Origin: Reclinomonas americana ATCC 50394
Lineage: Eukaryota
NCBI GenBank assembly: GCA_048213135.1
Contig: PS015078.1
Span: forward strand, 137,599 to 174,316
Reading direction: 5' to 3'
DNA: 36,718 bases
Position numbers and translations under genes: made by a program. Below the pieces are notes generated by a model that saw nothing but the letters and a program-made list of their open reading frames with translations, was not told the origin of the DNA and ran no database searches. Positions 4,804 to 36,684 of this stretch are shown piece by piece; position 1 is the first letter of the stretch, and every line of letters begins with the position of its first letter.

Positions 4804-5819
4804 ACAGCAACAGCAGCAACAGGGTCGCGCGCGAGGTGGAGATCGTGCCGGCCCACCACCAATGTCGCAAGCAGAATGGGAGGACGGCTCCCTGTCGACA
4901 AGGAGTCGCACGATTCGCTCGCCGCTCGACATGTTGCGTCGCCGTCAGCTGCCCACTTTTCATTAAGTTGACTCACTTGCCTGTTTCGCTGTGCGTGCAG
5001 GAATGTCATGTCGTCGGCACAACAGGCGCGATCATCGGCACGCGCTGAAATGATTGACGGCAGAAGACCACAAGGTGCGTGTGGGCGCGACAGAGAGAGA
5101 CTGACGATACTGTTTCCTCATTGCTCGTTTGGCTGCAGACACGACAAACACCGATGTTGTGAGTCCGCGCGGCGTCTCACAAAGGAAACGGAACGCGATG
5201 CCCACCAAAGTCGGGGTTTGTGCCGCCACTGTCTCCTTTGTCCTGCGTGCGTGTTCGGTGGCAGCTCATTGTCATGTCGTTCAGCAAATGCGCGAGTCGA
5301 TTGCCAGTCGTGAGGGTGGTCATCGTGGAATCGCTGCGGCGTTGCCGCCAAGTCGCGAAGGCCACCGCAAGAAGCAGTTCACACAGGGCAACGCTCTGCC
5401 GCCAGTGGCCAGTGGATACTCGAGCGGTTTGTCATTCGCACCTGCATCATGTGCGCGCTCTGTTGCTCACCACCGCCTCTCTCTGCGCAGTGTCGTCTGG
5501 CATGGCGTACACCACGTCCGACTCGGGCGACGACTACCTCGGCCTCCTCGAGCGAGTACCGTCGCGACTGAGTCGACGCGACAATGGGCCGACGCTGTAC
5601 GAGGCCTCCACCGACGAGGATGATCAGCGGTGCGAGATTCTGTTGTTGATGATTCAATTCTTCCAATGCTCACGCTCCTCTCGTTGCAGTGTCTTGGGCA
5701 AGCGCGGCAGCAACGGTGACCTGCATCACGCTGCGGCCGCCGCAGCTGGCATGAGCGGCGGCGCTGGTGCCGGTTTGCACAATGGGAACCTAGCGTACCC
5801 ACGCAAGTACGGCCACTAA
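2169..5819 (+). CDS. CDKL5: CDKL5/LF5-like cyclin-dependent kinase-like (CMGC) kinase with long poly-Gln/low-complexity C-terminal tail, ~13 exons
   Basis: Spliced product [84 protein letters not shown]...[10 protein letters not shown]...DFGFAR...[18 protein letters not shown]. Introns 2206-2288, 2456-2535, 2768-2849, 3046-3112, 3448-3522, 3870-3931, 4403-4468, 4933-5000 and further ones keep the frame to TAA at 5817-5819. Confidence 0.92.
3580..4822 (+). repeat. Coding CAG/CAA (poly-Gln) tracts within the kinase tail
   Basis: CAG/CAA runs at ~3580-3840, ~4029-4090 and ~4703-4822. Confidence 0.95.
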
Positions 5820-6147
5820 CTGGTGCTCTCTTCCCTCCTGCATGGGTGTAATTTTGTTTGATGTTGATGTTGATGTTGTTGTTTGTTGATGTGGTAATAT
5901 AACTCTCGGGCTTCCCACACGCGTGCATGCATGTATAATCAAGTCTTCTTTTTTGTATTGCATTGTTGTATACAAACACGCACACACACTCTTGCACACA
6001 TACAAACCAGGCACAAAAACCGCACACTCTTGCTGTCGCCAACCTCACACCATCCCGATACGGTGAGGGGAAAAAGTANNNNNNNNNNNNNNNNNNNNCG
6101 GATGGGTGCAGGCAGAAATTGCACACACACAGTGAAACACCAGAGAG

Positions 6148-7424
6148 TTATCGCCGCGGTGGTCGGCCTGTTGGTGTTGCGGCACGTCGTCGTGGAGCTG
6201 CTGGTGAGGGTGCACGCTTGGGGCCAGGAGGCGGTGTGCCCGCAGTGGCGGCGGCAAGGATTGAGTTGGGCAGCGACATTGGCGCACCACTGCCCGAGTG
6301 CGGTTGTGGTGTCACAGAGCGACCCCTCGCGTTGGACTGGCTGATTCCACTTACAGTGCTGGTGATAACGCCACCGGCACTGTGCGTCCGGCGGCCTGGT
6401 GTTGCGCTGCGTGCTGGTGCCGCGTTGCTTCGTCGTCCTGACGAGCTCTGATCAAAACTGGCCGTGTGGATGGTGCTGGCCAAGCGCAGCGTATGCAACG
6501 TCTGCGCCGTCATCCGCCGCTCTGGTGACACGCACCCACAGAACAAGACCTACACAAGGTAGTGGAGAAGGAGATGCGTGAGATACCGGATGAGGAAAGA
6601 AGGTGGTGGTGCGTGCATGCATGCGTGCAAACCTTGCTGTACTCCATCATGGACGACTGCAGCAAGTGGGTGAGCACGCTGGACCGGAACGGCACATCGT
6701 GGCTCTGGTTTGCCAGCGCCTTGATGACACCGTGCAACGCCACAAGGCCGCGATCGGGCTTGGTTGTTCCCATAGCACGAGTGTGCTCCGAGCCCACCAA
6801 GCGCACCAGCGACAGGGTGCCACGCATCACCTCCGTGTCGCCCACCGGTGACCGGTCCGCCGGCAGCACGCCCACCATGTGCACCTGGAACACCAAGTGC
6901 GACATGGCCTTGTCGTGTCCGCCAGCCTTGCGGTTCTCCACCGCCGTGCGCAGCAACTCAAAAATGTCCCCGTGATTCTCAATCGTCACCTTGGTCACGT
7001 TGGAGATCACCGTTGCGCCGTGATCGTCGCGTGTCAGCACATGCGATCGCTTTGGCTGCGTAGATGGGAAAAAATGAGTACGCTGGAAGGAAATGAACAA
7101 CGAGACGTGCTCAATCACGACTGCAAACCTGCGAGCGGTCGGCAAACAGGTCGGAAATGACCTCATTGTGCAACTCCACATAGGTGACACTGGTGGTGAA
7201 GTCCCAACCCTGCGCGGCCCAGTCGCCACGCGACAGGCGCAGCAGACGCTGGGTCGCTCGCGCAGCGAAGCCGTAGTCGCCGTCGAGTTCACGCACTGAG
7301 CCGGCAGTCGACTCTTCTGACAAATCGCCCTCCAGCGCCCGCAACCGACCGCTGCCCGTGCCACCGTACAGCAGCACCAAAGGATTGAAGCCTTGCAGTG
7401 CAGAGTCCACCAACGGCGCGATTT
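6148..7424 (-). CDS. C-terminal part of a kinesin-14-like protein: motor-homology domain with degenerate catalytic motifs
   Basis: EIAPLVDSALQGFNPLVLLYGGTGSGRL...VTYVELHNEVISDL...MSHLVFQVHM...GTLSLVRLVGSE...GLVALHGVIKALA...VPFRSSVLTHLLQSS...KVLFCGCVSP...QTLHTLRLASTI follows kinesin motif order. Two GT-AG introns; TAA at 6150-6148. Confidence 0.88.
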
Positions 7425-7902: not shown

Positions 7903-9225
7903 GGACTGCTGGCCAGCGCAGTGCCGGTGCCGGCCGACGTTGACGAGGACGCTGACGATGGGTTGGGCACGTCGGATCGACCGGGATCGGCTGCAGCGGC
8001 GGCGGCGGCGGCGGCGGCGAGCAAGCGGTACAGGGCGCTGGGGCCAGTCGGCAACCCGTACGCCGGACGCAGTCTTGTTGCGTTTTCTCTTTGAGCGCGC
8101 ATTCCGTGCAAGGCGAATCGTCATTGAGAGTGTTGTTTTTCGTGCAGCCTGCTGCCGCGCAGTCGGGATGCAATCGCGAGGTGCCGAGCCGGCCGCTGGA
8201 TCTGCCGCCAGAGATGATGAAGGAGGTGTTGAGAATCGACCCAGACTTTGTGACGACGGTGAAGCGCGGCGAGGCCCCGACGGCGATGCCTGAAGTGGCG
8301 CCGTCATGGGCGCGTCTGAGTGAGCGACAGCTGGTCAGCGAGCTGGAGCAGTCACGACAGCAGAGTGCGCACCTCAAGCGCTCTCTGCACCTGAAGAACC
8401 AGAGCCTGGCTCGCGCCCTGCTCGACAGCAAGGCGCTGCAAGCACGCTGCTCGCAGGATGTGGACAACGTGAAGCGCTCGCTGGACGTGCAGCTCCACAT
8501 GATGCGCTCCAAGTTCCAACACGCCGAGAGCATCAAGAAGCGACTAGAGGTGAGTGAGTGAGCTGATTTTGAAGATGCGAGCCTCTGCTCACTTTGAGTG
8601 TGTGGGTGTGCAGGATGGACTTAGAGCACGCGAGTCGGAGCTCGCACGTGTCACGCACGAGACACCACAGATTAGGCGGCAGGCGGATACGGCTGTGCGC
8701 GAACTCAAGGCAGCGCAGGATCATGAGCTGCGGACCATAGATATGGTGAAGTTGAAGGAGGACCTCATTCGAGAGCTTGTAGATATTGAGCGGCGGACAA
8801 AGAGCGTTGCGTTGGCTGTTGCATTCTTGTGCTTCCACTTCATTGTGCACTCTTGTGCTCACAATCGATGCACGTGCAGTTGGATGCGCGGTATTTGGAC
8901 TTGGCGACGGATTTGAGGCAATGCGAGGGCGACGTCGAGCGCAGCGAGAAGGAGGTGCTGCAGTTGCGCGAGAGCGTACAAGAGGGCAACGAGAAGTGCG
9001 CCCAACTGCGACAAGAAATGTCGGAGCGCAAGGGCAACATCCGCGTCCTGCTGCGGGTGGCCGCTCCCCGCAACGAGGACGAGCCTCAGGTGCAGCTGTC
9101 GTTCCCGGAACCCGCCGGTGCACCGACCCAGGTTGTGCTGGAGACGCCGCAGTTGTCGTCGCCGTACCTGGTGCAGCTGGATCGCGTCTTCCGGCCAAGC
9201 ATTCCCAACTGGGAAGTGTGGCAAG
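7903..9225 (+). CDS. Middle part of the same kinesin-14-like gene (coiled-coil stalk, neck, first motor strands) on an apparently inverted contig
   Basis: Coiled coil, then ERKGNIRVLLRV (kinesin-14 neck, cf. LKGNIRVFCRVRP) and QLDRVFRPSIPNWEVWQ. Introns 8077-8147, ~8550-8613 and 8806-8879; phase-1 donor at 9226. Confidence 0.85.
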
Positions 9226-9394
9226 GTTCGTACACACANNNNNNNNNNNNNNNNNNNNNNNNNNNNNNNNNNNNNNNNNNNNNNNNNNNNNNNNNNNNNN
9301 NNNNNNNNNNNNNNNNNNNNNNNNNNNNNNNNNNNNNNNNNNNNNNNNNNNNNNNNNNNNNNNNNNNNNNNNNNNNNNNNNNNNNNNNNNNNNN

Positions 9395-9712
9395 GCCCTC
9401 TGGCAAGTACTCGGCCAGCGCCATGGCCACGGCCTGCGCCACGTCGGGTGCTCGGGACGGGATCTTGTCGCCGCCACTCAGCGCCGACGACGCAGAAGAG
9501 GATGGCGCCGTGGCTGACGTGGCACCGGCCTCATTGTCGGCTCGCAGCAGACACGCCACAGCGACACGCACATCACCGTCGGCGCGCAACAGCTGCCGCT
9601 CAATCTCATCAGCACTGGCACCGCCACTGGACGACGACGAACGAGAGCCCTGATCGGTGGTGGTGTCGACCAGCAGCGGGAACACCGAGCGCAACGTGGC
9701 CACAACCTCCTC
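9395..9712 (-). CDS. Exon with CUE/UBA-like motif, probable N-terminal part of the kinesin-14-like gene (upstream exons to ~10090 unresolved)
   Basis: Follows acceptor ttccgcag and encodes EEVVATLRSVFP...ADEIERQLLRADGDVRVAVACLL; the frame is open into the gap at 9394. Confidence 0.55.
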
Positions 9713-10468: not shown

Positions 10469-11915
10469 TCACATGCTGCCCGAGACACTGCCACCCGCGC
10501 CGCCGGCTGGCTCGTCCAGCGTCGAGACGCACTCCCACTCGCCACTCGGCGTCTCCTTCCACAGCGAGACGACATTGTCGCCCGACGAGACCGCCAATAC
10601 ATTGCCTGTGTACATGCACATGCATGCACGTTGAGTTGTTACGACGAACTTGAGAGAGAGGTATTACTCCGTGCTCCGGCAAACCTGCAATGCTCCACGA
10701 GACGCGCCACACGGTCGGTCCGCTCTTGATGATCTTCTTGTGCTCCCACTTGAGTTCACCACCCTCGCCGTCCAGCGACGAGGTCCACACCACCACACTG
10801 CCGTCTTGCGAGCACGACGCAATCGTGTCGCGCGGCAAGCCAATGTTCGGTGCCCATGCCACATCGCGCACCCAATCGCTGTGCACCTCTTGCAAGTCCT
10901 GCTCCAGCACCCACTTGTCACCGTCGTTCCTGCACTTTTTTCAGCACGACGAAAGCTATCCTCATGCAGTGTGAGAACGAAACTTCCAAATCTTTACCAG
11001 GTGGTCGCAGCCGCCCGTCACCAGCCGCCGGCTCAACCGCACATCTGCGCGAGGAGAACACAGTTGCCGAGTTGGCAAACGCGAGACAAAAAAGAGAGTA
11101 GTGAGACGCGGACGAGTACGCAACGCTGTGCCGAGTCTTGCGTGGAGGCCGGTGGTACGGCCGGGGCCCAGGATACTGCATTGCAGCCGATCTTGTGTGC
11201 GTCGAGCACGCTGTCCACAGCCCAGGTGTCCTCCGCTGTGGGGATGCCTTCGCAGTGAGAGACGAGGGCGGAGGGCGAGGGGGAAAGGAGAAGTCCGTCG
11301 TACGCAACGCTGGTGTGTGAGCACTGCAAACGAGCCGTCAGAGGAGGCGGTTGCGAGTGACAGACCGAGTTCGTGCGGCGCCCAGGCAATCGAGTTCACT
11401 GCAGCACACCAACACTCGAGGTCAGCGACGGGCGTTCCTGTCCACACCGCCAGCATGCATGCTCGCCTGACGAAGTGTGCTGCGTGTGATTGTGGATCTT
11501 GTTCCACACATTCTCAGCCGTCTCCTTCCACAAGAACACCATGCGATCGTACGAGCATGAGGCAAGAATGCTGCCAAACGACGGGTGTGCCCACGCCACT
11601 CGCCACACAGGTCCCTCATGACTGCCGACAACGGGAGATGAGAAGCGCAACTCGAAAGAGGTCGATCGATTCGCACGCATTCAACTCACCCGCGCAGATC
11701 AGTCTTGTACACCTGACGATCACCTGTCACATCAAACAGCTTGATGGTGCGATCTGATGAGCAGGTGGCCAGACGACGACCATAGTAGTCCAGTTGTGCA
11801 TCGTGCTACTCTCACAGACACACACGCTATTAGTCACTCTTGAATTCTGCAGGCTGTCTCACATTCTCTTTCTGCGCGCAACGATCATATCCTCGTGCGC
11901 CGTGTCAAACGCCAT
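10469..11915 (-). CDS. SEC13: Protein transport protein SEC13 (WD40; COPII/nuclear pore/GATOR2), 8 exons
   Basis: [35 protein letters not shown]...[26 protein letters not shown]...[26 protein letters not shown]...[14 protein letters not shown]...[17 protein letters not shown]...IASCSQDG...[29 protein letters not shown] at 10471-10469. Confidence 0.97.
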
Positions 11916-12020
11916 GGTGCGTGTGCTCGCCTGTCAACAGTGAGCGTGTGAGTGAGCGAAGACAAGTGGCAGTCACGCCAAACGCGTGGCACGCTGCTCT
12001 ACAATACGCCATGTGACTAT

Positions 12021-12054
<34 letters not shown>

Positions 12055-12380: not shown

Positions 12381-15138
12381 ATGGTGGTCGCGCCACGAGC
12401 GGCGCACAGAGCCGGTTTGCCCATCTTCATCATCGCAGTGATGGTGGTGATGATGATGGTGGTTGTGCTGGCGACTGTGGTTGCGGGCAGTCGAACGAGT
12501 GAGCAAGCGGGACAAACACCGCTGCTGGTGGAGCTCGACGCCGATGTGGAGCCGCGGTCTGTGGCTGCTGACACGGGTCGAGTTGACGAGGTGCTCTTGG
12601 CCAGTGCGTCCACGAGCGGTGGCGGCAACGGGACAGTGGCAAGAGACGTGATCAACACCAATGCGACGCAGATCTCCAGGTGCGCAGCGCTGCGAGAGGA
12701 GCCGTCCTCTGCGGGTTTGTGAGACTGATTGTATGTGTGTGCGTGTGTTTGCGTGTGCCTCTGTAGCTGGGTGCGCAAGCTGCCGCGCTTCGACTTTCGG
12801 CTGAAGCCAGTGACGAATGAGTTCTCCACCGACAACCCGGCGTACTGGCAGGGCGTTGCAGTGTGGACGGGATTCGCCTTGATCGTTGTGATTGGCTTTG
12901 TCGGTGCGTGTGGGGACGGAGAGCGAGAGGAAGGAGGAGTGAGCTGCAGCAGTCTTGTTTCTACAATTCTTTGTCGTTCTCGAGCGCCTGCTTGATTGAA
13001 TCCACCTTTGCTGCGACGGAGCTGGCTACTCACCTGTCGATGCGCAGTCGCTCTGCTGTGGACGTGCGGTGCTCGTGTGTGCAAGTGCTGTCCAAATTGC
13101 TGCGGCGGTGTACTGCCACGGGAGAACTTTTGTTGTTGCGGAGGCGGCTATCGTTTCCGCAAATATGGCAGATGCGAGCGCAACTTTCCCTGCGCACTGC
13201 TGCTGCCGCTGTCCATCACGATTATTGCCATGGCGGCACTTGGTATTGCGTACAGCCGGCGACTGCACGACAGCGTCGGGAACTCGTCGGCCACGGTCGC
13301 CGGAGTGGGCGACACGGCGTCGCAGCGTGGTGAGTGTTGGAGATTCGAGTTTATGCGAAGCTCCTACACCTCATGCTGATGCGCTCCTTGTGTCCGCGAC
13401 GCAGTCGTTACTGTCACCAACGCACTCTTTGGTGTCATGCCGCAAATGTCGACGAGCGATAGCCAGACGCTCTCCGATGCGAAGCAGACGGTCAACAACT
13501 GGAAAGTGAGGACACTGTTGTGTGTCTTGTTGCTGCTTCTGATCTTGTACTCATGGGGATGGTGGCGTGCTGCAGCTTGACATCTCCAAAGTCAACGATG
13601 CAATCGGCAAGTACGAGAATGTGCGCAACATTGCACTCATTGTGGTGGACAGCCTCTTGATTGGTGAGTCCCTCACAAGCCTTGTTATCTCGTGACAGGC
13701 ATCTCACGCGCCTCTGCCTTCTCTACAGTGTTCGGCATCATGGGCATCTGGTGTGTGATGTTCCGCGGGCCATCCATGCTGACATTGTTGAGTGCTTCTG
13801 TTGGTGTCTTCCTTTGCGCTTGTTCGGCTCACCGTGATCGGCAGCCTCGGATGGTGCACGTTCTTGGCGATTTTCCTGGCCTGGCCGCTGGCCGGAATCC
13901 ACTTTTCCGGCACCATGGTGGTGGCCGACGTGTGTGCAGAGGTATGATCAACCGACATTCATTTTTAACTTATCGCAGCCCTCATAATGCTGGTGGTGTA
14001 GGTGGACGATTACCTGGCCGCGCAAAAGGCGCTTCCGGTAACTGTGACCACAAAGAGCACCGCGACCACGCCTCCGGCCAACACGCGCACCGACACAATC
14101 GTGGCAAACACCATTGACAAGATCACCAACTGTCAGCAGGCGATTGATGTACGTCTAGTCACGGAGAGAAACCGAGAAAAGAGAAATGGTGTTAATTCTC
14201 ATGACTGGTTTTCGTACGCAGTCGGCGGTCAAGATCGATCCGGTTGTCGACTCGGCGTGGACGCAGCTGCTGACGTCGATGAATTCAGCACTCCGACCGT
14301 ACTCGGTGGTGGTGACGCAGACCAACTACACCAATGCGATGAATGCGATCAGCTCTCAGCAGTCCGGCAACTCGACGAGCAGCACACTGCAGCAGTCGAT
14401 GGCCGACGCCGCACGCCTCACGGCACTGTCCTCCGATTTGACCGCCATGAAGTCGTGTGCCTTTGTGCAGCGAGCGTTTGAGTCTGTGCGCAGCGACTTG
14501 TGCACCTCGGCTCTGTTGCGTCCTGCAATTGGGGGTGGCGTGGAAGGGTTGTCACTGACTGTGCGTGCGCTTGCAGAGTGGCCGTCAACGTCATGTGGGT
14601 TTCGTTCTTTGTCATTGCCAACTCGTGCGTGGCCGTGCTGATTCTCGCATTCGTCATGGCCAAGCGGCACAAGGTGAGGGCAAGAAAAGAGGGCGAAGAT
14701 GAGAAGAGAAAGATTACAGAACATTTCAGCTATTGGTGATGCACGAGAGAAGAGTTGTGCACATGTCGGCAGGTGGAGCGAATGCAATGGTCATTCTCAC
14801 TGCAACTCGTCCCGTGACGCGCAGGATTGGCAACTGTCTCCGTCGATGGCGGGACGAGACCGCAAGAAGAAGCGCCAGCGCATGTTTGGTGTGGACGACA
14901 CACCGTCGCTCGCAGACAATGATGTGGAGAAAGCGTACGAGCCTCGTCGCTCAGTCGACGAGGACGATGCAGATCGCCGATGGGTACGACTTCCTTCATG
15001 CAAGAAGATGGTATCACCGACCACTCACTCCTCATCGCGTCACAGTTCACAAGACCGTCGTCGAGAGAGCGCCGGCGTTCCTCCGAGCGTGATCGACGAG
15101 GCGCCGACGACGAGGATCACAGACGGAACCGCATCTGA
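12381..15138 (+). CDS. Tweety (TTYH)-family multi-pass membrane protein with an extra N-terminal signal/hydrophobic segment, ~12 exons
   Basis: SWVRKLPRFDFRLKPVTNEFSTDNPAYWQG + TM1 resembles the Tweety N-terminus (LPHFDLxFxxVxxxFxPxxxxYQQ). Cys-rich loop, TM2 (ALGIAYSRRLHDSV), YENVRNIALIVV before TM3, TM4 ending VADVCAEVDDYL, DLC before TM5, and a charged tail ending at TGA 15136-15138. Confidence 0.75.
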
Positions 15139-15689: not shown

Positions 15690-15730
<41 letters not shown>

Positions 15731-17682: not shown

Positions 17683-17747
17683 GATTCTGCGTTGTTGTTG
17701 TATGGCCGTGTAATTTCACATCACTCACTTGCTTCCTCACCGCGCAC
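17683..17747. promoter_or_regulatory. Ultra-short divergent intergenic region
   Basis: 65 bp between ATG 17682 (-) and ATG 17748 (+). Confidence 0.55.
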
Positions 17748-18247
17748 ATGCAAGTCGACAGACCTGTCTCTGGCAGTGCATCAGCAGCAGCACCACCACT
17801 GCGCCTAACAGTGGCCGATGTGAGCTTTGCAGGTGACGCAGCCACCTTGTACCAGTTGCTGTACAGTCTGGAGGATGATCCTCGCGCACGTGAGACACTA
17901 GAGAAGACGGTGAGAGGGAGAGAGAGAGAGAGAGAGTGTGTGTGTGTGTGTATGTGTTGCTTATCGACCCGTGACACCCCGTGCAGTACAGCGAGATCAA
18001 GGCGAAGATTACGCGATTCAAGGCCGCGATTCAAGAGCTCCCTGAGCTGTCGTTTATGGAGCAGAGGCAGCAGCATGAGGCCAAGCGGAGGCAACTGGAG
18101 GAGAAGCTGTTGCGCGCACGTGCATGTGTGTGATGGATTGCGACGCTCACTGTCACTTGTATACACAGAGCGCTCATTCGACAGCTGACCACTGGTGGCA
18201 TGCAGGTCGTGCAGCAGCTGCAGGATCTGAGTCCTGAGAAAGAATGA
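17748..18247 (+). CDS. Small helical protein, probable Mediator subunit Med9-like, 3 exons
   Basis: ...VSFAGDAATLYQLLYSLEDDPRARETLEKT|YSEIKAKITRFKAAIQELPELSFMEQRQQHEAKRRQLEEKL|ALIRQL...; the helix-LP-coiled-coil pattern resembles Med9 (recognised from memory only). Confidence 0.5.
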
Positions 18248-23625: not shown

Positions 23626-25429
23626 ATGGCGCTCACAGTAGCACCGATTGCATCGCGGACACACAACTTCGCCCACCTCGTTGCAGTGGCGGAACTGGCA
23701 GCACTTGGGCATTCGGCTGTGCAGCGAGGAGACATTGAGAGGATAATCACCAAACTCGTTCACACACGCTTCAGTGCGCGTCTCTCTCTCTCTCNNNNNN
23801 NNNNNNNNNNNNNNNNNNNNNNNNNNNNNNNNNNNNNNNNNNNNNNNNNNNNNNNNNNNNNNNNNNNNNNNNNNNNNNNNNNNNNNNNNNNNNNNNNNNN
23901 NNNNNNNNNNNNNNNNNNNNNNNNNNNNNNNNNNNNNNNNNNNNNNNNNNNNNNNNNNNNNNNNNNNNNNTTGCGACGACCTGCGTCGTATCCGTCGGTG
24001 GCAGAGGCGGAGGTGGGCGAGGAGGTGGGCCGCGGCTCGCGACTGTCGGTGTCGGCTCTGGCGCCTGCGTCGGCCGATGTGCAGCTGCGCGCGTTGATTG
24101 AGGAGGCCAAGTCGCGTGAGCTGCTGCGGCGTGTGCATGAGGAGGAGGCGGAGTTGGCGGCTCGGCGGCAGGCGCGGTGGGAGTCGCATGAGGCGGTGGT
24201 TCGCGATGAGTTTGGTTTCACGCGTCGCAGCGATGGTGCTGCCGCCTCGACGTTTGTGTCGTCGGCGCGACCGCCGGTGCCGCAAACGGCGCAGGAGTTG
24301 TCGCATGTGCTGCGTGGGTACTATGAGAAGCAGCATGCCGCGCGTCAGCGGCTCATGGAACTGGCCGAGGAGGCTGTCATGCAGTCGGAACACTTGCTGA
24401 CGGAACCGGCGCCCGCTGTGGCGTTGGATGCGCGGCGCGAGTTGCGTGACTGCAGCTGTGTGTGTGATTCATATTACTGTCCACTCAATCATACCCGTGC
24501 AGGTCGGTTCTGTCAATGGGTGCACCTACTCCGACTGCGGCGGCGACGGCATCTCGGCGAGCATCGCGACCCCTGGCCTCGTCGGTTGGGCGCTCACCGG
24601 GCAGTGCGCCGAGTGTGCGTGAGCGATTATCGGCACTGGTGGCCATGTCATCGTCGGCCATTCCTCTGTCGTCGTCCACGGGCAGTCTGTCGTCGTCGTC
24701 GTCGCGCTTTGATCCGCTGCGAGTCACGGTGTCGTCGTCCAATCATGCCACGAGCGGCGTTGACACGCTGCGCCTGCGTGAGTGGCGACGCAAGGCCAGG
24801 GAGAAGCGAGCGGCGGAGCTGGGTATTGTGTCGCGCGAGGAGCAGGAGGCACGATTGGAGAGTTTGGAGCCGAGCTACGCAGACTTGAAGGCGGTCATGC
24901 GGCGGTTGCATTACAATCCGTTGACCCCGGACTGGAGGAAAAAGGGTTAGTAGGGGAGAGGAGGAGAAATGAGAGCAGAGTAATTTGTGGGTGTGGCGTG
25001 ACAGCAAGAGACAGGAGTGCGTGTTGCTTTTGAGGGCCTGTCGGTCGCACTCACGCGTGAAATGCTATGCAGTGGGTGTGTGCGATTTTGAGGACTGCAC
25101 CCTCGGCAGCGAGTACAAGTGCTCGTCGTGCGGCACGAGGGAATTCTGCGAACGGCACTTCCACATGTATCATGACTTGCTGGGACTGGAGGATCACACA
25201 GGAACAATGTGGTGAGTGCTGTGTCAGAGAGAGAGAGANNNNNNNNNNNNNNNNNNNNTCGATGCTGCTGTTGCTGCTCAAGGGCAAGCTCACGCGCCGC
25301 CTCTGCATGAATGCATCGCGATCAACACTGCATTCTTCTTGTGAAAAATGCAACACTGCTTACCGCTGTCGTAGTGCTCATGATGATGGATGCCGCTTGA
25401 GTGGAAGCCCAGCTGATGCGCCGCCATGA
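23626..25429 (+). CDS. Hypothetical multi-exon protein with coiled coils and a C-terminal Cys/His zinc-finger-like motif (ends uncertain, two gaps)
   Basis: Exons ~23971-24440, 24503-~24946 and ~25073-25211 join in frame; motif VCDFEDCTLGSEYKCSSCGTREFCERHFHMYHD. Confidence 0.6.
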
Positions 25430-26292: not shown

Positions 26293-26355
<63 letters not shown>

Positions 26356-29300
26356 GTCTCTTTTCTAATTTGCAGCCACCATGCATTCCGATGTACCACA
26401 CTTGTTGTTTTCTTGTCTCCTGTATTCTCAGTCCTCTTTCCTCGGGCTGATCCAGCTGTCTTCTCTCCGTGTCCTCTGAACCCCCTCCTCGATGTTCCTT
26501 TCTTTGTGTCTCAGACATCACACTTCTCTTTCCTTCTGCATGCACTCAACGATGATTCAGTTGTCTTCTCTCTATCGATGTTCCTTACTCCTTCCATCTC
26601 ATTCCAGTGATCGTTTGACACGCACTCCACACCGATCTTGTTGGCTCCCTCCTTCTCTTCTGGACCCCTCCTCTATATTGCAGCCTCGCAATCTCTTTCC
26701 ATGACATCAACTTAGTCCTCATTCCTCCGGCATGCATTCTACACCGTTCCTGTTGTCTCTCTTTGCCGGTGTCCCTTTATTCGCCTGTCTCAGAGATCGA
26801 CACGCACGGTACGAGGTCCTGTTATTTCTCTCCCTCTCGCCCTCTCTGCTGCTCATGCTCAGCGAGTTTCATCCTCTTTCGCTCTCCCTTCTCTTCCTTG
26901 CGTCGTCTTTTCTGCGCTCGTTTCCCCTTCCACCTTACCCCTTTCCCCCCTCTCCCTCCTTTCTCCCCTTCCCCCTTTCCCCCCTTTCCCTTTCCCTTTC
27001 CCCCTTTCCCCCCCTTTCCCTTTTCCCCTTTCCNNNNNNNNNNNNNNNNNNNNNNNNNNNNNNNNNNNNNNNNNNNNNNNNNNNNNNNNNNNNNNNNNNN
27101 NNNNNNNNNNNNNNNNNNNNNNNNNNNNNNNNNNNNNNNNNNNNNNNNNNNNNNNNNNNNNNNNNNNNNNNNNNNNNNNNNNNNNNNNNNNNNNNNNNNN
27201 NNNNNNNNNNNNNNNNNNNNNNNNNNNNNNNNNNNNNNNNNNNNNNNNNNNNNNNNNNNNNNNNNNNNNNNNNNNNNNNNNNNNNNNNNNNNNNNNNNNN
27301 NNNNNNNNNNNNNNNNNNNNNNNNNNNNNNNNNNNNNNNNNNNNNNNNNNNNNNNNNNNNNNNNNNNNNNNNNNNNNNNNNNNNNNNNNNNNNNNNNNNN
27401 NNNNNNNNNNNNNNNNNNNNNNNNNNNNNNNNNNNNNNNNNNNNNNNNNNNNNNNNNNNNNNNNNNNNNNNNNNNNNNNNNNNNNNNNNNNNNNNNNNNN
27501 NNNNNNNNNNNNNNNNNNNNNNNNNNNNNNNNNNNNNNNNNNNNNNNNNNNNNNNNNNNNNNNNNNNNNNNNNNNNNNNNNNNNNNNNNNNNNNNNNNNN
27601 NNNNNNNNNNNNNNNNNNNNNNNNNNNNNNNNNNNNNNNNNNNNNNNNNNNNNNNNNNNNNNNNNNNNNNNNNNNNNNNNNNNNNNNNNNNNNNNNNNNN
27701 NNNNNNNNNNNNNNNNNNNNNNNNNNNNNNNGATTGAGGAGAAGAAGCTGGAGGACGCGTTGATTGCCAAGATCCTCAAGCAATCGGAGGAGGAGAAGCG
27801 CATGGCAGCTGAACTGCAGCGTGTCAAGGACCTCGAGGCACAGGTGCGGGAGAACCGCATCGATCGTGAGCGAGCGTATCAGCAGCGACGCGAATTGGAG
27901 CGTGCACAGGCCGAGGTGCGCGCCAAGCAGTCTGCTGAGCGCGAGAAGGAGGAATACTGGCGCAAGGTTTGCCATTTTCTTTCAATGCAGTTCGACTACC
28001 AACGGGATCGTGACACTGCGCATCACCACAGACACAAGCGGAACGACAGGCGTACGAGCAGCTGACTGCTGAGCGCAAGTCGCGGAAGCGACAACAGCGC
28101 GTCGCCGACTGCAGTGCCATTGTGGATGATCTCATCTCCCTGACCTCGGTGGTGTGCGTGCACCGCGAGGCCACGGGTGGTGAACCGCTGCCGCCTCACG
28201 ACTGGGACGACTTGATGCGTCTCTTTGTCAAGAGCCTCCCACTGGAAGAGGCCATGGTGTGTGGGGGAAAGGAACTACTGTTTGTGAGGGAGAGTCGCAC
28301 TCGTTTCTTCTCTCCCCAGCTCTCTTTCTATGCCCTCTCTCCGTTCCTGGCACTTCTCACACAAAATATTTCTCTTTCACTTTCGTTTTATCATCTCTCT
28401 CATTCTCCTGTTCTCCTCTTTTCCTGTCTCTCTTGTCCTCCCTGCTGTCTCTTTCCCTCTCTCGCTTTCCCCCTCTCACTTCCTCTCTATTCCACCCACT
28501 CACAGGAGGTCCCGGAGGCCGGCTCGGCAACCAGCCCATCGGGCAGTGCCGCCGCCGACAACCCATCCAGTGCCGCACCGACGTCTCCGCAAGAGTCGGC
28601 AGTGCACAAGCTGCTCGACGATGCCGACATGCTGGACTACTTGCATCGGCGCGCCGAGTGGAATCCTGCCATTCTGTTGCGTCTCTGCTCACTTTCTTCC
28701 TCTATTCCTTCTGTCTCTCACTCGCTCTTTCCAATCATCAGCATGCAAGGAGTCGCGGCAGAGGAACGCGCAGGCTCTCCGAGTGGCTCGCGGCCTGGCA
28801 GTGCCGCATCCGGCGAACCGCTCGATCCCAGCGTGCAGTGCTTGGGCGACATTCTGACTGTGATTGAGGATGCTGCCGGCCGCGTGAAGCTGGACGCCTG
28901 GAGCAGTGGTCTGCTGCACCGACAGGGAGCGTCGGTGGCCAACCGCCAGCTGCGCTTCATTCTCGTTGGACCGCCAGGCAGTGGAAAGAAGACTGTGGCA
29001 CAGGCCATGGCGTCGCGCTTCCACCTGACTACCATTCAGTTGACCGAGCTCATTACGGCTGCTGTTGACGCCGCATCCAAGCCACCGAGGTTTGCGTGAG
29101 TGCAACGTTGTTCCCGTGGACACTCGATGCTCACGTCCTATCGTCTACGCAGTGCCCAGGAGTTGGAGGACGGTGAGCTGAGTGCTGCCGCTCAGTTGCG
29201 CAAGATTGGCGAAGCTGTGCGCCGCGATCTGGGGCGCGGGCGTGAAGTCAGCACAGAAATGTGCGTTCGTCTGGTGGAACACTACGTCGAGTATTCGCTG

Positions 29301-32300
29301 CCGGAGCAGTCGGCCGGCTGGATCCTCGTCGATTTCCCCGCCTCCATTGAGGCCATTAAGCTGCTGGAGAGGGCACTGACGGGGTGTGTTGTTCTCTTCT
29401 GGCATGAGTCAGTGTGTGTGGCAGTGGCTCATCTGTCACCTCGCCGCCCAGATACGACGAAAATCAACCACCGCCACATGTGTCCACCGTGTCTCCACCC
29501 ACTGTCATGCCACCAGATCCTCGCGGTGCGTCCCTCCCCGGTGCACGAGCACAACAGTGTCACGACTGTTGCTCATACTCTTGCACAGATGAACCGCCTC
29601 GCTCTGCCTTTGACGCCGCCATTCTGCTGGACATTTCACGCGACAACATCTTCAAGCGCTCGTTGGGCTGGCGCGTTGACCCGCAGCAACCGGGAGCACG
29701 TTATCACTTGGATTTCAATCCGCCACCCCCTGTGCGTCTTCGTCGCCGGGATGCACCTTGCGCGTCATCGCAGACTCATATGTGCGTGTGTGTGTATCAC
29801 AGGAGATTGCTGGTCGATTGGTGCCGGAGAATCCCAGCGAGGAGGCGACAGCGGCCAAGGTTGTGCCGCAGCTGGACGAGTACGACGCGCGGGAGCCGGA
29901 AGTGCGATCGTGGTTCGAGCAGACACACGTGCTGTATGCGGTAGATGGAAACGAATCGATTCGCGACGTGCAGCGTGCGGTTTTGGAAGCAGCGCGAGAT
30001 GCGGCGTCACTGAAGGGTCAGCGCGCCGAGTCGATTCTGCCTCGCTTCCAGGTGTGTGGGCGTTGGCCGAGAGAGAATTTTTCCTTGCGTCTCCCACTAA
30101 TCCACTCGATGCAGCTCTCGCTGCTTTTGCGTGAGGCCGCCCGCCGTGGCGATGTGGACACGGTGCAACGGTGCATTCAGCATGGTGCCGACGCGACAGT
30201 GGCCGACGACTGGGGTCGTACTGCGTTTCATCACGCTGGTTTGTCGTTGGTGACACGAATCTCTCTGTTCAGTTGCACTCGCGCTGACATGTGATCCACA
30301 GCCATGGAGGGACATACCTCGGTGGTGGCATACTTGGCCACTGTACCGGGCGTGCGTCTGAATGCGCCGGATCGCTTCGGTGCCGATGCCATGTCGGAGG
30401 CAACCCGCCACGACCATCGCGGCGTCATCAACGAGCTCTCGTCGCACGGCATCCCGCCGAGCGAAGAGTCACTGGTGCGTCCCGCTCAAAACTGGCGATC
30501 TTTCCTTCGTATTCCCGTCGCACTCAACTGTAATTCTCTCGTGCAGGGCGAGAAACTGTGCCGTGTGGCGAAGACTGGCGATTTGACGGCATTGAAGGCC
30601 GTGGCCACTGGCGCCGACCTGGCCAAGACCGATCGAGGTCGGTGATATAATAATATGTGGGACTACTCACCATTTGGGCTGCTCATCTCATCGGTTTGTG
30701 CGCACAGACGGTCGTTCGGCATTGCACGAGGCTGCTGCGATCGGTTCGCCCGAAATGGTCGAGTTCCTCGTGTCGCAGGTCCTGGATCCAAATCTTGCCG
30801 ATCGGTGCGTTCTGTCCTCCCTCCGTTCTCACTGTGTGAATGATTGTTACTCATCACGCAAGTGACCAGCTTTGGCGAAACTTCCCTGGGAATTGCACGG
30901 GCGGCGCCGGGGGTGGTCATTGACGGAGTGCCGTCTGCTGCCGGTGGAGCACGTGCGTTTCCTTCATCTGCAGTCGGCGTCATTGTTTTTCGCACTCACT
31001 CTTCCCTTCTTGCCTCGATAGCGGATGCCAAGCGTCAGCAAGTCTTTGAGATGCTGCAAAAGGCGGCAGCCGAGTACATTGCTCCGTCGGACCTCGATCA
31101 CGACTTTGCGTCATTGTTGCAAAACTGTTGAGTTTCCGCTGTTTTTTGCTTTGGAGTGCAGAAGACCACCGTCTAACAGTCGCTGCAGTCTGGCTCAAGA
31201 CCGAAAACCTGTACACCAGCGGCCTGCGACAAGTGTTCCACGGACTTCGACTGGAGAGACACGCTTTTACGGGCTACTTGTCGCAGCTGAAGCGAACATT
31301 CGAGGAGTTCCTCCGCCGACCAGACGCACAAAAGCAGCGACAACTGGACGAGTTTGTCGAGTCGTTCAATGCCGTGCACGATGACATGCGGTGCGTCCTC
31401 TATATTTGTGGCGTTGTTACCGATAGGCACCGTGCTCATCACATCGCCTCTCGCAACAGACGAGATGTGGCTGTGAAGGAGGAGCTGCACAAGCGCACCG
31501 ACGAGCTGCGCGATCGTCTGTGGAAGCTGTGCGATCAGCGACGAGTCACGGCTCAAACCGAGCGGCAGAAGCTATTGGACGCGGGTGGCGTGAAGAAGCA
31601 GCGCGCTGCGGTGGAGCAGCTGTACGTGACGCTGATGCAGTTGGAGTGCGACCGATATGTGGCTGCGCGCGAGCTGATTGAGGACTTTAGTGCCGCGCAC
31701 TCACATGCGGTACGTCGTGTCACTGTTTCGCTTGTTCGTGCCGCTGTCGGACTTATTGCGACTTGCAGGTGTTGTACGAACGCCAAGTGGATCCACAGTC
31801 GTTCTACAATATTCGAACTGGCGGCGAAGTGGTGATTCGAACCAAGCAAGCTGATGGTTTGTTTGTGTGTGACCTATGGTGCACTGATGTAATGGATGCG
31901 AGCCTCACTGAGATTTTCGCAGCTGGTGCCAAGGGCGGCAAAAAGGCACCCAAGGCCGGTGCACCGAAGGCTGGCGCCGGCAAGAAGGCGCCTGCGGACA
32001 AGGGCAAGGGCAAGGGTGCAGTCGAGGAGCCAGTTACGTGCCTGCACATGGGTTTTTCCGATTGACGCTTGTGGCTCACGTTGGTGCGGATGGCAGGATG
32101 CGGTGGCGACGGCATTTGAAAATGCCACCGTGCTGCTGGGCGCCTATGCTGGTGAGCGCTTCGTCTTTGCTTGTACCGTTCTCTCTTTTTCTCATGATCT
32201 TTGTNNNNNNNNNNNNNNNNNNNNGCACACAACAACAACAGAGCTCACCGAGGCCATTGAGGGCGCACCACTGTCGTTGTTGCGCCGCGCTATTCAGCAG

Positions 32301-33811
32301 GAAGACAACGGCACAGCGGCGCGTCTGGCGGAGATCAAGAGACACGCTGAAGTCACCCTCAAGGTACCGTCGTGGCATTCCTCCTCCGTTTCACCAACCA
32401 GTCATTCTCACTCTTAATGTGTTTGCAGGACATGGACAATCGCTCGGCTGCGTACTTCAAGCGACTAGAGGAGGCCACTGGGGAGCGCTTTGAGCGTGAG
32501 AATGCCGCAGTCATGAGTGTCGTTGTCACGCTGCAGCGCACGATTGAGCGCGGCCAGCCTCTTCGTCATCATTTGGTGCTTGATGATGACCAGGCGACAG
32601 TCGATCGGCATAACTTGGTGCGTCCGCCATCGGCCCGTCTCGCTCCACTGCCACCCAAGCCAGAGAAACGTTGCGTGAACTAGCGTGCGCTCAAGAATCG
32701 GCGGTGCGCTTTCCACTCACTGCTCGTCGTGTGCAGTGGTGGGTGTCTTCACGCAGCAGCAACTGGCGGTGCTGGTCGGCGCGTTCCGCACGGCGGCTGT
32801 CACCGAGACCGAGATTCCGATTGCCACATTTGTGCGCACGATTCTCAACCTCGTGCACACCAATGGGGACGACTTGCCTGCCGAGTGGCGAAATCTCAGC
32901 AAGGAACACCTGCAGCGAATCGGTGTGGCGTTCGACAAGCAGCACAATGGCCTGATGCAAATCCGAAGCCTGCTGGTGTCGCTCATCTGTCCGTCAATGC
33001 CCACACTCGCCGACCTGGCCAACATGAAGGAACAGCTGTTGACGCTGACCGACGGCGGCGATCAGGTTTGCATTCGGCCCGATGCGTGTGAGTGTGCTTT
33101 TTTGGTGCATCTCGTTGCTGACGAACAGCCGTGCTTGTGACAGGTGTCCAAATCGCAGCTCATGAGCGTGCAGTTTTGGTTCGACAGTGCCGGTGCTGGC
33201 AGCGAGAAGCAGCTGCAGACGTCGCGCAACATCAAGCACCTGCTCTTCGGTGAGTGATGTCATGGGCGACTGGGGTACGAGCTGCGCAGCGCTAATCGTC
33301 CCTCCCCTTTTGTCAGAGTCGTTTGCCGTGGGCCAGCCACCAATGGTGCGGTGGCGCGAGCTGCTGTTGACGCTGTGCGCGGACACGCAAACGGCTGTCG
33401 GTTTCCGCAAGGCACTGGCCGTGGTACCAGCCGGGTCCACGTCAAGTCGTGCCCTGTCCGCCAGCGAGTGGTTCTCGGTGCTACACATGGGTGTCGCACC
33501 GCAGCACGCTCGTGCCAACGTCTCTCCGTCTCTGGTACGTGCGCCTTGAGTCGTTTAAGAGAAGGACGACGACTTATCTCGCTCGATGAATGCAGGCGGA
33601 AATCGAGTCCGTGTTCCGGGAACAGCGAGCGAACGCTGCCACCGATCAGCTGTCTCTCGACGAGTTTTGTGTGTCAGGAATGGGCGCGGCCATGATCGAG
33701 GAGTGTCATGTTGCGTCGACGCACGCTGTTGGGAAGAACGCAACACGAACTTACTTGTCCATCTGCATGCAGCTTTACAAGCGAACCGATCTGGATGCCC
33801 TTCTGCGATAA
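25847..33811 (+). CDS. SPEF2: Sperm flagellar protein 2 / central-pair CPC1 orthologue (CH domain, coiled coil, adenylate-kinase-like domain, inserted ankyrin repeats, C-terminal helical/EF-hand-like region); >26 introns, part hidden in gaps
   Basis: MSAILLSWINDEVGLSRRVQNFERDMSNGYLLGELL; LIAKILKQSEEEKRMAAEL...VRENRIDRERAYQQRRE; GPPGSGKKT; GWILVDFPASIEAIKLLERALTGY; RYHLDFNPPP; FNAVHDDMRRDVAVKEELHKRTDELRDRLWKLCDQRR; LMQLECDRY; TAA at 33809-33811. Confidence 0.92.
26292..26350 (+). repeat. (CT)n microsatellite, one of many intronic CT/GA/CA tracts that often abut assembly gaps
   Basis: Direct reading; similar tracts at 12023-12050, 15695-15740, 17915-17950, 23505-23534 and 34241-34300. Confidence 0.95.
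26925..27033 (+). repeat. Polypyrimidine (C3-6 T3-4)n low-complexity tract in a SPEF2 intron
   Basis: ccctttccccctttcccttt... runs into the gap. Confidence 0.9.
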
Positions 33812-33934
33812 TGGAGTGTGGAGTACGAGACACAGAACTACTGTAGTGTACAAACAACAAACGAAAAGCACGAAGGGCGGCAACAAAAGCACGCACGCTG
33901 TCCTCCTCGTCCTCTCTCGTTCTCCAATCTAATC

Positions 33935-34241
33935 ATGAGTACGCGAAAGAGAGGCGCAAGTGGTGGACCCACACTCGTGCTTCGTTTGGATGTCAAAGAG
34001 GCCGCACTCAAGGCCAAGTACGACGCATTCAACAAGTACCAAGTTGCACTCGCACTCAATGCATCTCTCTCTGTCTCTGTTTCTCTCTCTGTGCTTCTTG
34101 CGCACACTGACACGTGCGTTGCAGGAGACCAAGGCAGCGGCGTCACAAGCGGCCGCCGACGATGAGAAGAAGAAGCATGCAGAGTTGCAACAGCAGCAGA
34201 GAAAAGGACTCAAGAGACCACTGACAGAGGTGAGTGAGCGA

Positions 34242-34299
<58 letters not shown>

Positions 34300-36375
34300 G
34301 ACGACACNNNNNNNNNNNNNNNNNNNNTCTCTCTTCTTCTTCTTCTTCTTCTCTCTCTCTCTCTCTCTCTCTCTTACCTCTCCTTGCCTCCCTCCTTGCC
34401 CCTCTCTCACCTCGCCCGCAGATGTCTGCCGACGAGACCATGTCTCCCTTGCCGGGCGACTTGGGTGCGGCAGGTGGCTCTGGATCCGCGTCGGCGACGC
34501 CTGCAGGTGCTGCGGCCGCGCTCAGTGAGAAGAACCGCGGATTCAAGCTGTCATCGCGTCTTGTCAAGAAGCTGGAGGAGCGCAAGGATGGCGATGGAGA
34601 TGAGCCGGCGACGAAGAGGCGGAAAGCGGTGAGAGAGAAAGAGAGAGAGAGAAAGAAGAGCAGAGCAAGGATGCTGACCTCGGTTGTGCGCTCGTGTGTG
34701 TGTTTGTGTGCAGGATGGGTATGCTTGGTGGTGGTCTCTGCTGGTGTGCGCTCATGTCAACTGACTTGTCTCTGTCTGTCTGCGTGTCGTGGCAGCGAGG
34801 AAGAGGAACAGGAGGTGTGCATGGATTCCCTGTGTTCCTGCTGCTGTTGCCGTTGTTATGTGACTCGTGCGATTGGCAGGAGTCGAATGTGGTGGTGTGC
34901 GAGTGCTCGGCGACGGATCTCGCCAATGGCGACATCAATGAGGCCTTTAAGCATTTTGGGCGCATCGACGGTATCCGCTGGTGGACCAAGACGTGCGTGC
35001 TGTCTCTCTCGCTCTCCTCTTCTGCACGCGTGTCGCTGAGCAGTGCTTCTGTTGTTGGTCGCTTCGCAGCAAGTGCAGCGTCATGTTCGAGTCAACCGAG
35101 GCGGCGCGCACCGCGCTCGGTCACTATCCCGACCGAAAAATGCAAATCAATGGCGGCGATGTGATTTTGCGTTGGTCGCTGCCTGACGAGCGGCGCTTTG
35201 CCGGCAACGCGTACCGAGGTCGTGGGCGCGGTGGTTTCCGGGGCAGCTATCGTGGTGGTGCCGGTGGTTTCCGCGGTGCTGGTGGCGGCTTCCGTGGTGG
35301 CCGTGGTGGTCTCGGATACCAGTCGAACAGACCAGGTTTTGGGTGCGTTGATCGCCTTGCGTTTTTCTCCTCCCACGCCGCCGCCACCGCTGACCTTGCG
35401 TATGCACGCGCAGCTTCGGCAACTACAATGCTCCCGACGAGTTCGTGTCGGGCTACAGCGCAGCACCGTCGCCACACATGGGCTACGTGCCCGGCGCGTC
35501 GAGCTCGTCGTCGTACTCGACTGGCGGATATGAGCCGGCCGCCACGCCGAGTGTTGCGTCTCCGTACTTGGCGCGCTCGCCACCCTGCATGACGAATACC
35601 AACCTCGCATGTTCTTCTCTCCTTTCTCTCTCTCTGGTTGCATGCAGATGCGACTCGGGCGCTTTGTTCCCGCAGGCTCATCATCGCCACCGCCGGCCGA
35701 CAGCAGTGACATTTCGCCGCAATATTCGGCATCGTCACCAACGTCGCCACCCGGTAAGACACACACATACACATTTTGCACCTTGGCACCTTCCTGGCCA
35801 ATCGGCTGCTCACCTCCTGCACCTCGCAGCGTACTCGAGCAGCGCACTTCCGTCGTTCTCCGCGGGCGGCAGTGGCGCCGCCGCCGTTGGTCGCGATGCC
35901 TCGCGCGATGTAAGACCGGCATTCACCGCGCTACCATCGTTCTCCTTTGGCGGTTCCTCTTCGTCAGCCTCGCCCGCACCGGCATCCACCGGCGGCTACA
36001 CCGCTCCCGCCTTTGTGCCCTCCAGTGGTTCCGTGCCTTGTTGTTGTCTACGTTGGAAGCGATCTGTAAGCTCACTTCGTCTGTGTCACAGATGCCGCAC
36101 CGGCGCCGTACGCTCCCAGCAGCGACAGCGTCTACTCAGCCAGTGACTCGCCCTACGGCGGCGGCTACAGTGTCGGCGCCTCGTCAGGCGACGCCTACTC
36201 GGTCGACTACTCCCCGGCTGTCCCCGAATCAGCACCTGCAGCCGCAGCCGTCGCACCAGCTGAATCCACCGGGTACTCGCCCACTCCTTCTGCGCCAAGT
36301 AATGACGACTCTGCATCGTCGTCAGAACCGTCAGCTCGCTCCTCGCGACAAATGCGCTCATACGAGGACATTTGA
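33935..36375 (+). CDS. NELFE: Negative elongation factor E (NELF-E)-like RRM protein with RGG box and Tyr/Ser/Pro-rich tail, ~11 exons
   Basis: EAALKAKYDAFNKYQETK, GLKRPLTE and KNRGFKLSSRLVKKL parallel, in order, the human NELF-E motifs EEALQKKFNKLKKKKK, GVKRSLSE and KNSGFKRSRTLEGKL. An RRM follows (INEAFKHFGRIDGI...KCSVMFESTEAARTAL), and the protein ends RQMRSYEDI-TGA at 36373-36375. Confidence 0.8.
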
Positions 36376-36410
36376 ATACAAAACGAAATCGCAGTGACAT
36401 TTTTTCCGCC

Positions 36411-36684
36411 ATGGCATTGTTGAGTGAGAGGAGTGTGTCTCTTTTCTCTCACCTTCTTCTCTCTCACACACACTCTCTGTGTCTCTCTGTCTCTGTAACA
36501 GGCACGGTGTGACTGCGGCCATCCCGCACACAGACTCCACCCCGGATTTTGTCAATCCTCTCACTGAAGTGCGTGCATTGTTTGTGTGTCTCATTGCAGC
36601 ACCCATCTCTCACTCTCTTTCTCTTGTGCACAGGATATTGAGCTGCTCAATCAGATCCTCTACGATGTGATTGTGGCACACCAG
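36411..36684 (+). CDS. 5' exons of the next gene, possibly phosphoenolpyruvate carboxylase (partial)
   Basis: ccgccATGG start. Exons 36411-36418, 36502-36568 and 36634-36684 give MALHGVTAAIPHTDSTPDFVNPLTEDIELLNQILYDVIVAHQ, similar to the PEPC N-terminal PLxxDIxLLxxILxxVI motif; only 42 aa are visible. Confidence 0.45.

Follow-up and report, generated by a model that had tools for sequence, protein, structure and literature searches.

The stretch analysed here, called the window throughout, comprises 36,718 nucleotides (36.7 kb) of contig PS015078.1 from Reclinomonas americana ATCC 50394. It has a G+C content of about 58%, contains 13 runs of N, and is densely packed with the intron-rich genes of a flagellated eukaryote, namely a CDKL-like kinase gene, two kinesin-like genes, Sec13, a gene for a Tweety-like membrane protein, a Med9-like gene and a long SPEF2/CPC1-like central-apparatus gene. 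The introns are short, with a median of about 68 nt, a branch motif of the CTCAC/CTGAC/CTCAT type and an almost invariable CAG end. Besides ordinary 5' splice sites (donors), these genes very probably use a second class of real donors that begins with GTT and is displaced by one nucleotide. The sequence patterns described below make it likely that these are genuine GT-AG donors cut before GTT, whose downstream block would pair with U1 small nuclear RNA (snRNA) in a displaced register, either shifted by +1 or with a bulge at +2/+3.

Two donor classes and the last base of the exon

Donors with G at intron position +5 are referred to as class N and GTT donors with G at +6 as class S; H stands for any base other than G, and a slash marks the cut. 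The original prediction, made by eye, had placed GTT words of the second kind at 18 to 19 coordinates in the window, and all 19 are found there on the expected strands: 13 begin with GTTGCG, three are GTTGAGT, and GTTACGT, GTTTCGT and GTTCCGT occur once each.

Class frequencies were obtained from a curated set of 77 introns, 60 of them in a stricter tier (tier 1), from which introns containing N, micro-exon artefacts and predicted introns within long open frames were left out. The set holds 56 class N donors, 19 class S donors and two that belong to neither class, and in tier 1 class S accounts for 14 of the 60, such that an abundance first estimated at about 18 of some 95 introns, or one in five, is upheld in both counts. 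The two classes divide sharply according to the last base of the exon. Class N donors follow G in 47 cases and another base in nine, while class S donors follow G in a single case, the doubtful site at 36028, and another base in 18 (Fisher p = 8e-10). The corresponding figures are 38 and 7 against 0 and 14 in tier 1 (p = 9e-9), and 34 and 11 against 1 and 11 in the set produced by the motif-blind gene finder described below (p = 3.6e-5). The earlier claim that the second class follows non-G bases, with 36028 as a possible exception, thus holds within the window, the exception itself being ambiguous; class S also exceeds the ordinary donors that follow a non-G base, then put at about 10, by 18 to 9.

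Among the class N words in the window, GTGCGT (16) is the most frequent, and GTTTGY occurs 10 times. Class N donors after a non-G base show G in 8/9, C in 7/9, G in 9/9 and T in 9/9 at positions +3 to +6, and class S donors show the same letters one position later, with G in 16/19, C in 16/19, G in 19/19 and T in 17/19 at +4 to +7. Every class S donor has T at +3 (19/19), which fits a +2/+3 bulge, and GTTGCGT alone makes up 11 of the 19. The two donors without T at +7, both GTTGCGC, share the same ten bases, GTTGCGCGCA, at 11873-11882 on the minus strand and 18109-18118 on the plus strand.

All 19 class S introns run from GT to AG, 18 ending in CAG and one in TAG, as U2-type introns do. A strict branch pattern, [CT]T[CGA]A[CT] followed by YAG, is present in 12 of them, and the rest have near variants such as CTTAC. 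Median lengths are 66 nt for class S and 68.5 nt for class N, with CAG acceptors in both, which indicates that the two classes belong to the same intron type. U12-type introns carry the donor consensus RTATCCTT, which occurs in none of the 19 donors (0/19), so that this intron type was rejected. A homopolymer error adding a T was likewise discarded, because it would neither track the -1 base nor need a T at +7.

Protein collinearity across the junctions

The Sec13 gene, on the minus strand at 11915-10469, has seven introns, four of which are of the GTT type, and its best match is 65% identical. The protein read across the junction at 11882, HEDMI/HDAQ, is gapless against 17 of 18 Sec13 homologues, the junction at 11308 against 14 of 18, and that at 10983, KIWK/NDGDKW, against 8 of 18; the junction at 11124 lies in a variable loop, where homology says little. 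At 11308, the alternative GTACGA donor lying 5 nt further on would, as read by eye, put the sequence out of frame. A metagenome scan with a Sec13 exon returned 80 loci, the best with 63% identity, and no close relative for intron comparison.

Intron 3 of the same gene is a GC-AG intron (11399-11466, minus strand, CAG/GCGAGC...GCAG, 68 nt), forced by the conserved SSVNS across its junction.

For the SPEF2-like gene, the exon downstream of 31127 matches positions 933-997 of the solved SPEF2 (9ijj_4M), beginning at its first residue, and 13 of 14 homologues align across this junction with no gap. The exon tail before 32670, RPPSARLAPLPPKPEK, has a counterpart in proline-rich segments of homologues, of which 3 of 9 align gaplessly and keep an identical spacing of 22 residues. 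A word-based protein search with a SPEF2 exon and PDB searches with exons 32739-33065 and 31024-31125 gave no match.

These alignments bear directly on where the cut falls. The original prediction placed it before GTT, and protein collinearity at 11882 and 32670 favours this position over GTT/GC or G/TT. A GTT/GC cut, which would make the introns GC-AG, adds a residue at 11882 that is absent in 17 of 18 Sec13 homologues, and at 32670 it would break the gapless 22-residue spacing. A G/TT cut at 11882 (TT-AG, with the acceptor moved by one) loses the invariant His of HDAQ. Upstream donors at 32618, 32622 and 32637 are ruled out by the homology of the exon tail before 32670, and 32618 is also in the wrong frame.

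The word at 32618 is a perfect normal donor word (TTG/GTGCGTCC) inside the SPEF2-like exon, which by homology runs 52 bases further. To judge from the sequence, this GTGCGT word is evidently a decoy that goes unused, or else an alternative site with no productive outcome.

Reading frames, gene finders and word usage

For each class S site, all frame-keeping GT-AG or GC-AG pairs between the flanking exons were enumerated, and a pair was called donor-like when it had an N or S pattern, a YAG acceptor and a length of 45-130 nt. With the GT-AG splice as claimed, the frame is open across both flanking exons at 19/19 sites, and with the intron retained it is open at just 2/19 (28676 and 33710). The claimed donor is the sole donor-like site compatible with the frame at 4933, 8806, 11882, 11124, 32033 and 35553, and in-frame donor-like alternatives are present at 8077, 13787, 14515, 18109, 24441, 36028 and 36419. 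The sites are collected in the table.

Table. Introns with class S donors in the window, with the exon end and the cut shown by a slash
Feature	Exon end/donor	Interval	Strand	Length (nt)	Gene or region	Observations
S-type intron	CAT/GTTGCGT	4933..5000	+	68	CDKL-like kinase tail	Sole frame-keeping donor-like solution; blind finder pick
S-type intron	CTT/GTTGCGT	8077..8147	+	71	Kinesin-14-like	Open only when spliced; other donor-like pairs in exon; blind finder pick
S-type intron	AGC/GTTGCGT	8806..8879	+	74	Kinesin-14-like, coiled coil	Sole donor-like solution; blind finder pick
S-type intron	ATC/GTTGCGC	11806..11882	-	77	Sec13 intron 1	TAG acceptor; collinear; sole donor-like solution
S-type intron	AGC/GTTGCGT	11236..11308	-	73	Sec13 intron 4	Collinear
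S-type intron	AGC/GTTGCGT	11045..11124	-	80	Sec13 intron 5	Sole donor-like solution; variable loop
S-type intron	GAA/GTTTCGT	10930..10983	-	54	Sec13 intron 6	Collinear; only donor-like donor, second acceptor possible
Candidate S-type intron	ATT/GTTGAGT	13787..13844	+	58	Tweety-like	Ambiguous against in-frame 13751 G/GTGTGTG (94 nt), which both gene finders (blind and trained) took instead
S-type intron	TCT/GTTGCGT	14515..14576	+	62	Tweety-like	Frame requires an intron; lengths of 95-122 nt would follow from three weaker in-frame donors; picked by trained finder, not by blind
S-type intron	GCT/GTTGCGC	18109..18168	+	60	Med9-like	Open only when spliced; in-frame alternatives; blind finder pick; upstream exon has weak Med9 Pfam match
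S-type intron	CGA/GTTGCGT	24441..24502	+	62		Single intron joins both coding frames; other in-frame options; gene finders used two introns and a 4-nt exon instead
S-type intron	TCT/GTTGCGT	28676..28741	+	66	SPEF2-like	CT-rich, CTCAC branch site, CAG; blind finder pick; retention also in frame
S-type intron	ACT/GTTGAGT	31127..31188	+	62	SPEF2-like	Collinear; only donor-like donor, second acceptor possible
S-type intron	CCA/GTTACGT	32033..32096	+	64	SPEF2-like, low-complexity region	Sole donor-like solution; blind finder pick
S-type intron	AAC/GTTGCGT	32670..32736	+	67	SPEF2-like	Collinear
Candidate S-type intron	CAT/GTTGCGT	33710..33772	+	63	SPEF2-like, last intron	Typical length, CTTAC branch site, CAG; retention in frame; C-terminus does not align
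Candidate S-type intron	AGT/GTTGCGT	35553..35647	+	95	Low-complexity tail	Sole donor-like solution, with two frames open
Doubtful S-type site	GTG/GTTCCGT	36028..36091	+	64		Only case after G; several in-frame alternatives; trained finder took 36040
Candidate S-type intron	ATT/GTTGAGT	36419..36501	+	83		Frame open to next donor 36569; rival 36424 A/GTGAGAG requires another acceptor and was taken by trained finder

A possible further member of the class lies at 13517 in the Tweety-like gene, where ACT/GTTGTGT has the form of a GTGTGT word with an extra T and is followed by a branch site and a CAG 59 nt on.

A motif-blind gene finder was built as a dynamic programme that scores codon usage, intron length and the 3' end, treats every GT as equal and allows GT and GC donors only. 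It took 11 of the 19 class S sites, and donors of the S pattern make up 12 of its 84 introns, as against 75 of 2356 GT dinucleotides on the sense strand (p = 1.5e-5). Early gene finders predicted excess introns in long open frames and micro-exons, and their raw output serves solely as a blind control. A finder trained on its own output recovered 15 of the 19, which is not independent evidence. Both Sec13 and the gene at 24441 came out broken from the donor-trained finder, because the second donor class does not fit a single matrix.

Of the 17 copies of GTT[GAT][CA]GT on the sense strand of genes, 16 are donors and the single unused one follows G, and seven further copies are antisense; every sense-strand GTTGCGT heptamer (11/11) is a claimed donor, with two more copies antisense. 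Control words that depart at one position rarely or never act as donors: 0/21 with C at +3, 0/24 with G at +3, 2/21 with a base other than T at +7, and 0/30 with a base other than G at +6.

These results also bear on the explanation that the junctions were mis-called, the real cut lying nearby (at GTT/GC, at a GT five bases on or at another in-frame GT) or the intron being retained, in which case the class would be an artefact of reading by eye. It draws on the in-frame GC donor found 3 nt downstream of every GTTGCG site and the true GC-AG intron in Sec13 at 11466, as well as on plausible rival donors at 13787, 36028 and 36419 and on retention in frame at 28676 and 33710. It is nevertheless very improbable, since gapless collinearity at 11882, 11308, 10983, 31127 and 32670 speaks against it, and random calls or GCGTNN donors would not be expected to require G at +6 and T at +7 or to be tied to the -1 base. 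Moreover, GTTGAGT, GTTACGT and GTTTCGT have no GC alternative, and the blind finder recovers 11/19.

Proposed pairing with U1

Ordinary donors in the window can be written as (G)/GU-NN-GU, mostly GUGCGU, and the second class as H/GU-U-NN-GU, with its G-U at +6/+7 and not at +5/+6. In the explanation that we favour, the block U-G/A-C/A-G-U at +3 to +7 would pair with U1 positions A7 to A3, just as +2 to +6 does in ordinary donors. Two arrangements would allow this. The intron +1G may sit opposite U1 C9, in the slot of the exon -1G, which is the +1 shifted register; or +1G and +2U may pair normally while one U bulges, which is the +2/+3 bulge. The GU itself would then set the cut at the U6 or catalytic stage, which would have to accommodate one extra nucleotide.

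Read in the shifted alignment, a single rule could cover both classes, by which no more than one of G(-1), G(+1), U(+2), G(+5) and U(+6) is mismatched. Scored at these five key positions, class N donors have no mismatch in 33 cases, one in 22 and two in one, and class S donors in the shifted register have one in 17 and two in two. When class S is read shifted, G stands at register position -1 in 67 of the 77 donors. C at register +4 occurs in 23 of 28 donors without -1G and in 17 of 47 with it (p = 1.2e-4), a preference that suggests, on sequence grounds, a U1 with G at position 5 (G5 U1) in this organism.

Pairing energies were computed with a nearest-neighbour model, with assumed canonical flanks, for the standard U1 5' end and for G5 U1 as an assumed variant. 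With the standard U1, the energy of class S donors in the canonical register is 0.0 for 18 of 19, in keeping with the class definition, by which none has G at +5; their mean is -0.83 kcal/mol in the shifted register versus -0.14 kcal/mol in the canonical one, with 0.0 for most GTTGCG sites. Pairing turns favourable only with the assumed G5 U1, for which the class S mean is -3.75 kcal/mol shifted and -3.15 kcal/mol bulged, versus -0.14 kcal/mol canonical, and the shifted register is the best for 16 of 19, being favoured over the bulge by just ~0.6 kcal/mol. An Rfam search of the window at gathering thresholds gave 0 matches, so that no snRNA gene is visible within it.

Several points weigh against a displaced register as the explanation. 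Of the 13 GTTGCG donors, 9 have an energy of 0.0 kcal/mol in all registers when the standard U1 5' end is used, so that the register argument depends on an assumed U1 variant together with assumed canonical flanks. Even with the assumed G5 U1, class S donors (-3.75 kcal/mol) pair less strongly than class N donors after a non-G base (-6.6 kcal/mol), yet they are twice as frequent (18 vs 9). The base before class S donors (T10 C5 A3 G1) is pyrimidine-rich, not A-rich like position -2 of class N donors after G, and its composition is closer to position -1 of class N donors after non-G (p = 0.68) than to that -2 position (p = 0.10), which gives no sign of pairing beyond the shifted G. The weaker pairing of a commoner class and the pyrimidine before it also mean that shift and bulge are not separable. 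Since the perfect word at 32618 evidently goes unused, sequence alone does not define donors here. Finally, the curator of the intron set knew the hypothesis, 5 of the 19 class S calls fall in tier 2, and the scope of the whole analysis is one 36.7-kb window.

Two further explanations dispense with slippage of U1. In one, a dedicated second U1 (or U6) gene, fully complementary to GUUGCGU, would let the class be read in the canonical register by a small nuclear ribonucleoprotein of its own. The abundance and uniformity of the class (GTTGCGT in 11/19) would suit such a paralogue, as would its being more frequent than the energetically better class N donors after non-G; U1 recognition sequences are, moreover, altered in Archamoebae, and Physarum is said to have both a standard and a modified U1, according to the available text of Roy & Bowser (2022 preprint, 10.1101/2022.06.08.495308). 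We regard it as unlikely, given that GTTGAGT, GTTACGT and GTTTCGT repeat the diversity of words seen among normal donors, which is expected if one U1 reads both classes, and that the sole published Mastigamoeba U1 candidate, as given in the same text, is a single sequence.

In the other explanation, U1 would pair little or not at all, and donors would be set after U1 or by proteins, with the U6 ACAGAGA box contacting G+6/U+7 across a flipped-out U, or through contacts of the U1C or Luc7 type. The standard U1 5' end, which offers no stable register for most GTTGCG sites, agrees with this, and in systems already studied U1 and U6 alike recognise the G-U at +5/+6 (PMC4856993). Even so, it appears distinctly unlikely: the C at register +4 in donors without -1G is what a G5 U1 would favour and not a known U6 contact, and a trade-off between -1G and the intron side, as seen here, classically marks a U1 helix.

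A stronger form of the displaced-register explanation would give U1 a single register, in which it reads a fixed heptamer of the form G-[G/U]-U-N-N-G-U, with the first G as its most constant base and the cut made at whichever GU it contains. We put this forward tentatively, as a possibility that is on balance doubtful.

Comparison with known donor registers

Noncanonical U1 registers are already known; in humans, donors of the present kind account for under 0.1% of sites and are not known as a mainstream class. In the human +1 shifted register, the cut is made at GU and the downstream G-U (+6/+7) pairs with U1 one position off (Roca & Krainer 2009, as cited by Tan et al. 2016, PMC4856993). According to the available part of the latter paper, both the shifted and the +2/+3-bulged registers were experimentally validated in human cells, all validated noncanonical registers together account for 1.5% of 201,541 human sites, and the +2/+3 bulge has just 68 predicted sites (Tan et al. 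2016, PMC4856993). Class S, with its register as proposed here, resembles the human +1 shifted sites described there in that the cut falls at GU, the downstream block is one position off and the intron +1G would lie opposite U1 C9. It differs from those rare sites in making up about one-quarter of the introns of the window, in having U at +3 nearly always and in being confined to non-G exon ends. The human +2/+3 bulge sites (Roca et al. 2012, as cited in PMC4856993) offer a comparable likeness, in that the usual +3 to +6 word comes after GUU and either U can bulge while the remaining bases pair canonically, which T at +3 in 19/19 matches; a human-type bulge model alone explains neither the avoidance of an exon-final G nor the excess of class S over unbulged donors after non-G.

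The Archamoebae provide a second point of comparison. As reported in the available text of Roy & Bowser (2022 preprint, 10.1101/2022.06.08.495308), Mastigamoeba balamuthi has GUGCGY as its main donor and a U1 candidate with ACGUAC, and Entamoeba donors are GUUUGU. The window is similar to these in its GTGCGT (16) and GTTTGY (10) words and in the preference for C at +4, and its G+C content and flagellar genes would, together with these donor words, be compatible with an archamoeba, though as a lead only. In contrast to the window, that text, as far as available, describes one consensus with C, not T, at +6, and contains neither 'shifted' nor 'bulge'. The likeness to M. balamuthi would point to a G5 U1 by analogy, in line with the variant U1 suggested in the original prediction, and would bear on the present organism only if it is related to that lineage.

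A third likeness is to cases in which U1 binds at a distance and U6 fixes the cut (Hwang & Cohen 1996 and others, as cited in PMC4856993), such that U1 pairing and cutting are uncoupled. As presented in that source, those cases are engineered or isolated and have larger offsets, unlike the window, where a large, naturally occurring class shares one constant offset of a single nucleotide. A literature word search for the commoner class S donor words found no relevant paper, the original Roca 2009 and 2012 texts and supplements lying outside its coverage, and a literature search on a bulged register in intron-rich protists found nothing relevant. What is new is not the existence of such registers, but their frequency, their uniformity and their strict dependence on the last base of the exon.

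Other features of the window

The tail of the CDKL-like kinase gene (3525-4900) contains long CAG/CAA runs encoding polyglutamine. The kinesin-14-like gene at 7903-9238 meets an N gap (9239-9394) where its motor domain starts; past the gap (9395-9954), the plus strand is no longer kinesin-like, and the minus strand has an open frame with an intron of its own at 9802-9713. This may reflect a scaffold join or a truncated gene. Two predicted genes are arranged head to head, some 20 bases separating their start codons: the Med9-like gene at 17702 on the plus strand and a small gene at 17682 on the minus strand.

Two introns are unusually long against the typical ~68 nt, at 28257-28505 (249 nt) and 34230-34421 (192 nt); simple sequence, CT-rich or of the form (GA)n/(CT)n, makes up most of both, and the second spans an N gap. 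The SPEF2-like gene model has apparent ankyrin repeats at 30115-30952, seen by eye in the translation, between an adenylate-kinase-like part and the conserved C-terminal region.

Implications

Shifted and bulged registers have been known only as rare human exceptions, and whether they are a tolerated accident or a usable design is a standing question. If the displaced register is true, an organism with about one-quarter of its donors of this kind, under a -1 rule, would be a natural system in which to study the coupling of U1 binding to cut-site choice. In genomes of this type, gene finders based on a single donor matrix would mis-predict a large share of the genes. Were the fixed-heptamer reading to hold as well, U1 register and cut would be uncoupled by one nucleotide in about one-quarter of the introns, with either a G5 U1 or a second, GUUGCGU-complementary U1 paralogue as the possible agent, and no earlier organism would be known to use a noncanonical 5' splice-site register for a mainstream donor class under selection.

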